This document shows, one piece after another, positions 42,217 to 42,891 of a stretch of 42,891 bases of DNA. The notes below the pieces were generated by a model. The model was not told where the DNA came from, searched no databases, and was given only the letters and a program-made list of their open reading frames with translations. Both the position numbers and the translations under genes were made by a program. This DNA is from a virus (Duplodnaviria; Heunggongvirae; Uroviricota; Caudoviricetes), in the IMG/VR virus record IMGVR_UViG_644736362_000006; one strand, 5' to 3'. The number at the start of each line of letters is the position of its first letter. Within the stretch, counting starts at the first letter, position 1.

Positions 42217-42564
42217 ATGGCAGTAAAGATTTCAGGAGTCCTGAAAGACGGCACAGGAAAACCGGTACAGAACTGCACCATTCAGCTGAAAGCCAGACGT
42301 AACAGCACCACGGTGGTGGTGAACACGGTGGGCTCAGAGAATCCGGATGAAGCCGGGCGTTACAGCATGGATGTGGAGTACGGTCAGTACAGTGTCATCC
42401 TGCAGGTTGACGGTTTTCCACCATCGCACGCCGGGACCATCACCGTGTATGAAGATTCACAACCGGGGACGCTGAATGATTTTCTCTGTGCCATGACGGA
42501 GGATGATGCCCGGCCGGAGGTGCTGCGTCGTCTTGAACTGATGGTGGAAGAGGTGGCGCGTAAC
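42217..42564 (+). CDS. stf: Lambda side tail fibre gene stf (orf-401), first ~116 codons only; truncated at the junction with lacA
   Basis: Internal Met gives MAVKISGVLKDGTGKPVQNCTIQLKARRNSTTVVVNTVGSENPDEAGRYSMDVEYGQYSVILQVDGFPPSHAGTITVYEDSQPGTLNDFLCAMTEDDARPEVLRRLELMVEEVARN, then reading becomes antisense lacA. Confidence 0.85.
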
Positions 42565-42891
42565 GGAAAGAGTAACGTTGGGTGCAATCAGTACGTTATC
42601 ACCGATTGTTACCGTGTAGTCATCGACAATGGTTAAATTGAAATTTGCATAAAAATTGCGGCCTATATGGATGTTGGAACCGTAAGAGAAATAGACAGGC
42701 GGTTCTACCCAGGCGTTTTCCCCTACCGTGGCAAACATTTCTTTAATCAGGCTTTCTCTTTTTTCAACTTCTGATGGATGCGAGTGATTAAACTCATACA
42801 TTAACGTTTTCCCACGAAGTCTTTTTTCCGGTAAGCCTTCGCACATATCGGTAAATAGCTTGCCTGCTCTTATTCTTTCGGTCATTGGCAT
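42559..42891 (-). CDS. lacA: E. coli lacA (galactoside O-acetyltransferase), 5' part only: start lies just beyond the window edge and the 3' end is cut at the lambda stf junction
   Basis: Minus ORF MPMTERIRAGKLFTDMCEGLPEKRLRGKTLMYEFNHSHPSEVEKRESLIKEMFATVGENAWVEPPVYFSYGSNIHIGRNFYANFNLTIVDDYTVTIGDNVLIAPNVTLSVT recognised as LacA; diverges after ~111 codons. Confidence 0.88.

Follow-up and report, generated by a model that had tools for sequence, protein, structure and literature searches.

A 7-bp microhomology joint between lambda stf and lacA in the λplacMu55 prophage of Escherichia coli BW2952

The stretch of DNA analysed here (hereafter the window, 42,891 nucleotides, IMG/VR record IMGVR_UViG_644736362_000006) is the λplacMu55 prophage carried in malG by E. 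coli BW2952 (CP001396). Close to its right end, the side tail fibre gene of lambda, stf, runs directly into K-12 lacA, which is read on the opposite strand, and seven base pairs at the border are common to both parents. We find it very probable that the lac/trp/Mu substitution of λplacMu55 has its left-hand novel joint at this border, and that the border is the scar of an illegitimate recombination event guided by microhomology in vivo.

The stf/lacA joint at base resolution

Across the joint, the plus strand reads ...gaggtggcg CGTAACG gaaagagtaacgtt..., or codon by codon gaa gag gtg gcg CGT AAC Gga aag agt aac gtt. A megablast search of phage records matched lambda at 100% over window positions 42100-42565 (lambda 19533-19998) and returned nothing of lambda past 42565. 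The same end point, window 42565 or lambda 19998, was obtained when the whole window was compared by BLAST with NC_001416. The stf gene (orf-401, the N-terminal ORF of the side tail fibre) starts at 42217, and its codons 1-116 plus one nucleotide (42217-42565, plus strand) are 100% identical to lambda 19650-19998. Codon 116 (AAC, Asn) occupies 42562-42564, and it was through this codon that stf had been predicted to be lambda-like, on which searches and alignment agree.

On the minus strand, a three-way in-register comparison of the window, NC_001416 and MG1655 lacA showed that the lacA match begins at 42559. From there it is free of mismatches to the window end (42559-42891, 333/333 identical to MG1655), a segment that holds codons 3-113 of the K-12 galactoside acetyltransferase gene, codons 1-2 lying just past the window. 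Residues 1-113 (...NVTLSVT) are kept, the last of them, Thr113, being encoded by ACG on the strand opposite 42559-42561, just as the original prediction had it. The alignments with the two parents also establish that stf is not intact past the joint and that the minus-strand ORF is lacA.

The bases common to both parents are the 7 bp CGTAACG at 42559-42565, corresponding to lambda 19992-19998 and MG1655 361522-361528, and the crossover took place somewhere within them. They include the first base (G) of lambda stf codon 117. A hexamer, cgtaac at 42559-42564, had been proposed as the shared element: the sharing is real, and its length has to be corrected to 7 bp. The joint contains no filler bases, lambda base 19998 inside stf being followed directly by K-12 lacA from codon 113. 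Lambda stf and lacA also resemble each other just to the left of the heptamer, where 12 of 18 nucleotides match; with the heptamer, which closes it, this makes an imperfectly matching patch of 25 nt (42541-42565, 19/25 identical). It is because of this patch that megablast matches to lacA stretch back to 42541.

Both genes are cut short by the joint. Stf' retains 116 of its 401 codons and continues with an out-of-frame tail of 23 codons (GKSNVGC...VIDNG and a stop, 42566-42636, plus strand, antisense to lacA'), which makes a chimera of 139 aa. LacA' consists of residues 1-113 followed by 33 out-of-frame codons (RHLFHHQ...RPRL and a stop, 42457-42558, minus strand, antisense to stf'); the 90 C-terminal residues and His115 are gone. 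His115 of LacA is needed for catalysis, an H115A substitution lowering activity by about 90% (PMC12775004). Because of the loss of His115 and of the 90 C-terminal residues, LacA' should be inactive, a prediction from sequence that agrees with the lacA' genotype. For annotation, the joint is the source of two spurious genes, a 139-aa "tail fibre" ORF and a truncated lacA, and neither chimeric ORF should be entered as functional. The joint itself is a scar, with no function of its own.

The prophage and its surroundings

A protein look-up of the exact 139-aa Stf' chimera returned one contig only, CP001396.1 of E. coli BW2952; with a 141-aa version starting at GTG, no record was found. When the Mu c repressor was looked up in the same way, its 196-aa version returned BW2952 and its 174-aa version did not. 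The window agrees with the BW2952 record wherever the two were compared, namely in the two chimeric proteins, in the first 40 bases of the window and in the adjoining left end of Mu. The exact 28-nt joint gave 0 matches in the GTDB representative genomes, IMG/VR and JGI metagenome contigs, and no record spanning it was found among INPHARED phages or in 5,426 complete E. coli genomes, a set without NC_012759 (BW2952). The strain is described as MC4100 malG::λplacMu55 Φ(malG::lacZ), Δ(argF-lac)U169, and kanamycin resistant (PMC3708739).

The window opens with the c end of phage Mu (1-2808, plus strand, Mu 339-3146), which comprises the repressor gene c on the minus strand, ner and A', and has a single difference from the Mu reference. 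In MuA, a C-to-T change at window 2247 (Mu 2585) turns Gln420 into a TAG amber codon (2247-2249), probably an allele that the parental Mu already carried in A. MuA is also truncated at its 3' end, at residue 606. The lambda backbone follows (2799-42565, plus strand), and BLAST against NC_001416 gave it a prophage-like order: lambda 29985-48502, cos, then lambda 1-19998. Its first segment, lambda 29985-33502, lies at window 2799-6316. Next comes a Tn903 aph(3')-Ia kanamycin cassette of the pUC4K type (6317-7562, minus strand), sitting in the lambda XhoI site at 33498, and then lambda 33499-48502 (window 7563-22566) and, after cos, lambda 1-19998 (window 22567-42565). Lambda 19999-29984 is absent, i.e. 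the 3' part of stf, tfa, the b region, attP, int, xis, ea8.5 and part of ea22, and no attP core was found in the window with 1 mismatch allowed. The ends of the kanamycin cassette read CTCGAC-CTGCAG-G(12) and C(10)-CTGCAG-GTCGAG, with a SalI/XhoI hybrid, a PstI site and poly-G tails. The cassette is clearly a pUC4K SalI fragment put into the lambda XhoI site in vitro, and the apparent 4-bp TCGA repeat around it is due to the compatible overhangs.

Apart from these rearrangements, the backbone differs from reference lambda at a few places. Over about 1.6 kb (window 21049-22619, from lambda 46985 via cos to lambda 53) it carries the DLP12 allele at 30/30 distinguishing positions, and lambda alleles are found again left of 20927 and right of 22639. 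The stretch corresponds to ybcV, ybcW and the region upstream of nohD in this cryptic prophage of E. coli K-12, and by its sequence it looks like a product of homologous recombination with a K-12 host. Three 1-bp indels relative to NC_001416 lie at window 22704, 36832 and 37452 (a G lost after lambda 137, and a G gained near 14266 and near 14886). The two inserted Gs lengthen the predicted K-region product to 247 aa (JAB plus NlpC/P60), against 199 aa for K as annotated in the reference. The three indels likely reflect errors in the old reference, not mutations. Single-base differences from NC_001416 were seen at window 3830, 8998, 19682, 32593, 32801, 34407, 35817 and 39467 (respectively lambda 31016, 34934, 45618, 10028, 10236, 11842, 13252 and 16900). 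The cI and S alleles equal those of NC_001416, and neither a cI857 nor a Sam7 difference was found.

In CP001396, lacA' is completed just to the right of the window. It is followed by lacY (417 aa) and by an ORF of 1080 aa in which TrpA' is fused to LacZ; all three lie on the minus strand. The expectation that lacA, and presumably lacY and lacZ past the window, would read toward lambda is therefore confirmed in CP001396.1. From lacA codon 113 to lacZ codon 3, the lacA'-lacY-'lacZ block is identical to MG1655 (4776/4776). The trpA'-'lacZ joint (L006 15116-15118) is of the W209 type: a 3-bp ATC is common to its parents, and lacZ is kept from the third base of its codon 3 onward. Past it come trpB and the 3' end of trpC, then two Mu right ends in inverted orientation, and finally malG' and malF. 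The two Mu right ends (L006 16503-16606, about 6.2 kb right of the window end) have 51-nt arms that are 98% complementary and stand 2 nt apart, one adjoining the 3' end of trpC and the other malG. The outer one, at L006 16556-16606, ends in ...CGCCGCTTCA next to malG, has trpC'(3' end)-trpB-trpA'-'lacZ on its inner side, and is the functional transposition end. The inner one looks like a relic of the original Mu insertion at the trpC end.

To the left of the window, CP001396 holds Mu 1-338, again adjoining malG. A 5-bp target duplication in malG, GCGAT (MG1655 4243492-4243496), flanks Mu attL (TGTATTGATTCAC...) and attR (...CGCCGCTTCA), and its presence at both sides means that the element was inserted by Mu transposition. 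From Mu end to Mu end, the whole element measures 49,160 bp. As all of the defining parts are present, we conclude that it is a λplacMu operon-fusion phage. The joint had been predicted to mark the breakpoint of a lac substitution; a breakpoint it is, and the substituted block is the lac/trp/Mu block of the engineered λplacMu55, not that of a plain λplac.

Origin of the joint

At its other end, the substitution is bounded by a partner joint (window 2799-2808), where Mu A' (Mu 3146) meets lambda 29985 in ea22 over a 10-bp microhomology, CTGCCGCAGA. This second joint yields a chimeric ORF of 200 aa, Ea22' followed by antisense Mu (2607-3209, minus strand). It is also present in an independent Logan assembly from run DRR002064, whose contig deviates from the window at its extreme end only.

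To estimate how often such overlaps arise by chance, we simulated 2,000,000 pairs of random breakpoints, one in lambda 18-27 kb and the other in the lac region. A microhomology of at least 7 bp was obtained at a frequency of 4.8e-4, and for the 10-bp overlap of the partner joint the breakpoint simulation gave a chance frequency of 7.5e-6. The flank of the heptamer is also unusual. Among 3475 in-register 7-mers common to lambda 18.9-27 kb and the lac region, 0.06% have a flank this good, and the figure is 2/492 for candidate 7-mer sites with the lac break in lacA or just downstream. At the partner joint the picture is comparable, the 10 bp being accompanied by a slipped AACTG. We conclude that both end points of the substitution have far more microhomology than chance would give, and that few of the available patches of imperfect homology are as good as the one at the stf/lacA site.

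Judging from the scar alone, the joint would have been formed in vivo by RecA-independent illegitimate recombination guided by short homology. The two copies of the heptamer may have annealed, or a template switch may have occurred there, and the imperfect homology of the flank might have acted as a stabiliser. The most likely moment would be the selection of the parental plaque-forming lambda-lac-Mu phage. We presume that the ancestor of the joint belongs to the λp1(209) lineage, later made into λplacMu. This lambda-lac-Mu parent, λp1(209), is said to have been built by in vivo genetics (Casadaban, 1976), and Bremer, Silhavy and Weinstock reportedly converted it to λplacMu in 1984-85. According to PMC2621351 and its references 49-52, microhomology-mediated deletion, spontaneous deletions included, and the formation of λbio transducing phages in E. 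coli are RecA-independent.

A joint made in vitro by restriction and ligation appears extremely unlikely. The kanamycin cassette of the same phage is clearly an in vitro insertion, and in native lambda a MluI site (ACGCGT, 19996-20001, within GTA-ACGCGT-C at 19993-20002) overlaps the breakpoint and has been lost in the recombinant, where only its first three bases are left (window 42563-42565). However, filling in a MluI end (A^CGCGT) would have given ...GTAACGCG and trimming it ...GTAA, whereas the actual product is ...GTAACG followed by GAAAG. On its side, lacA has no MluI-compatible or otherwise recognisable site at CCCGTAACGGAAAG. In contrast to the ends of the kanamycin cassette, the stf/lacA joint shows no linker and no restriction hybrid, nor does it show an att core or a transposon end, Mu ends included. 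The partner joint, with its 10-bp overlap, is likewise devoid of a restriction site. The 7-bp overlap and the 19/25 patch are what homology-guided joining in vivo predicts, and the reported in vivo genetics of the 1976 parent phage point the same way. We judge the MluI overlap to be a coincidence.

It is slightly less improbable, if still very unlikely, that the joint is the product of an Int-dependent aberrant excision of the λgal/λbio type, or that it corresponds to the lac5 substitution found in λplac5, λgt11 and the Charon phages. The structure is indeed of the lambda-lac transducing type, and lac takes the place of the b region as it does in λplac5. A single aberrant excision, however, produces one novel joint and a hybrid att, whereas in the element both joints, at 42559-42565 and at 2799-2808, are novel and an att core is absent. 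With no att hybrid at either end, the substitution did not come from one aberrant excision of the Int type. As for lac5, the map argues for another end point: the lac block has a single EcoRI site, 1,754 bp from the joint on its right-hand side, which places it about 21.75 kb from the left end of lambda, compared with about 19.5 kb for the λgt11 left arm up to its lacZ EcoRI site. Least probable of all, and hardly credible, is an assembly artefact, a chimeric contig in the BW2952 genome record. It is true that the stf/lacA joint itself has been seen in one public assembly only. Yet that record is a finished chromosome, and the structure it contains is coherent, with 49,160 bp, within lambda packaging size, between Mu ends flanked by a 5-bp target duplication. 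It also fits the published genotype, lacA', Kan-resistant and malG::λplacMu55 (PMC3708739). As BW2952 is Δ(argF-lac)U169, there is no second lac copy from which a repeat-collapse chimera could be made, and the partner joint was recovered independently in the Logan assembly.

Recombination in vivo, guided by short homology, is thus the reading that we retain. Within it, we tentatively raise a further point, while leaning slightly against it: the site may have been chosen as the end of a top patch of imperfect homology between the lambda b-arm and lacA, and not as a random 7-mer. If this were true, imperfect flanking similarity, beyond exact microhomology, would steer illegitimate recombination in E. 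coli, and the sequenced joints of historical transducing and fusion phages would make up a small natural data set on the question.

Consequences and comparison with known systems

Together, the joint and its partner take lambda 19999-29984 out of the phage, some 10 kb in which attP, int and xis lie. The deletion frees room for the lac/trp/Mu DNA within the packaging limit, and the loss of attP, int and xis leaves the phage dependent on Mu transposition or on homology to integrate.

Compared with the λplacMu family, the element has the same Mu c end (c, ner and an amber A'), the same Mu right (S) end next to trp'BA'-lacZ, a promoterless lac reporter, with lacY and lacA', the same lambda backbone devoid of attP, int and xis, a kanamycin marker and a 5-bp target duplication; no structural differences were found. 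In particular, lacZ lacY+ lacA' is joined to the lambda late arm, and the kanamycin marker of Kan derivatives such as 53 and 55 is present as aph(3')-Ia. Some odd-numbered λplacMu phages carry imm21; the immunity region of the element is that of lambda, not imm21. The feature is therefore already known: it belongs to an engineered phage whose map dates back to the 1980s, and its sequence is in the published BW2952 genome (CP001396). As a construction scar of a laboratory fusion phage, it carries little biological weight, and exactly the same joint is to be expected in MC4100-derived reporter strains that harbour λplacMu.

In λplac5, λgt11 and the Charon phages, too, the lac5 substitution puts lac in place of the lambda b region, and lac reads leftward toward J. 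At map level the end points would differ: in λplacMu55, lambda and lacZ are separated by lacA' and a complete lacY, and on its far side the substitution has Mu DNA joined to ea22, not att-proximal lambda DNA. The closest likeness at the level of the joint is with illegitimate joints made at short homologies, that is λbio and λgal (Ikeda and co-workers) and the spontaneous lacI deletions (Albertini et al. 1982), as cited in PMC2621351: they have the same short shared run, no filler and no recombinase site. Those joints came from defined assays with known genetic requirements, whereas the joint described here is known from its sequence. With 7 and 10 bp of shared sequence, the two joints of λplacMu55 are tidy textbook examples of illegitimate recombination at short homologies.
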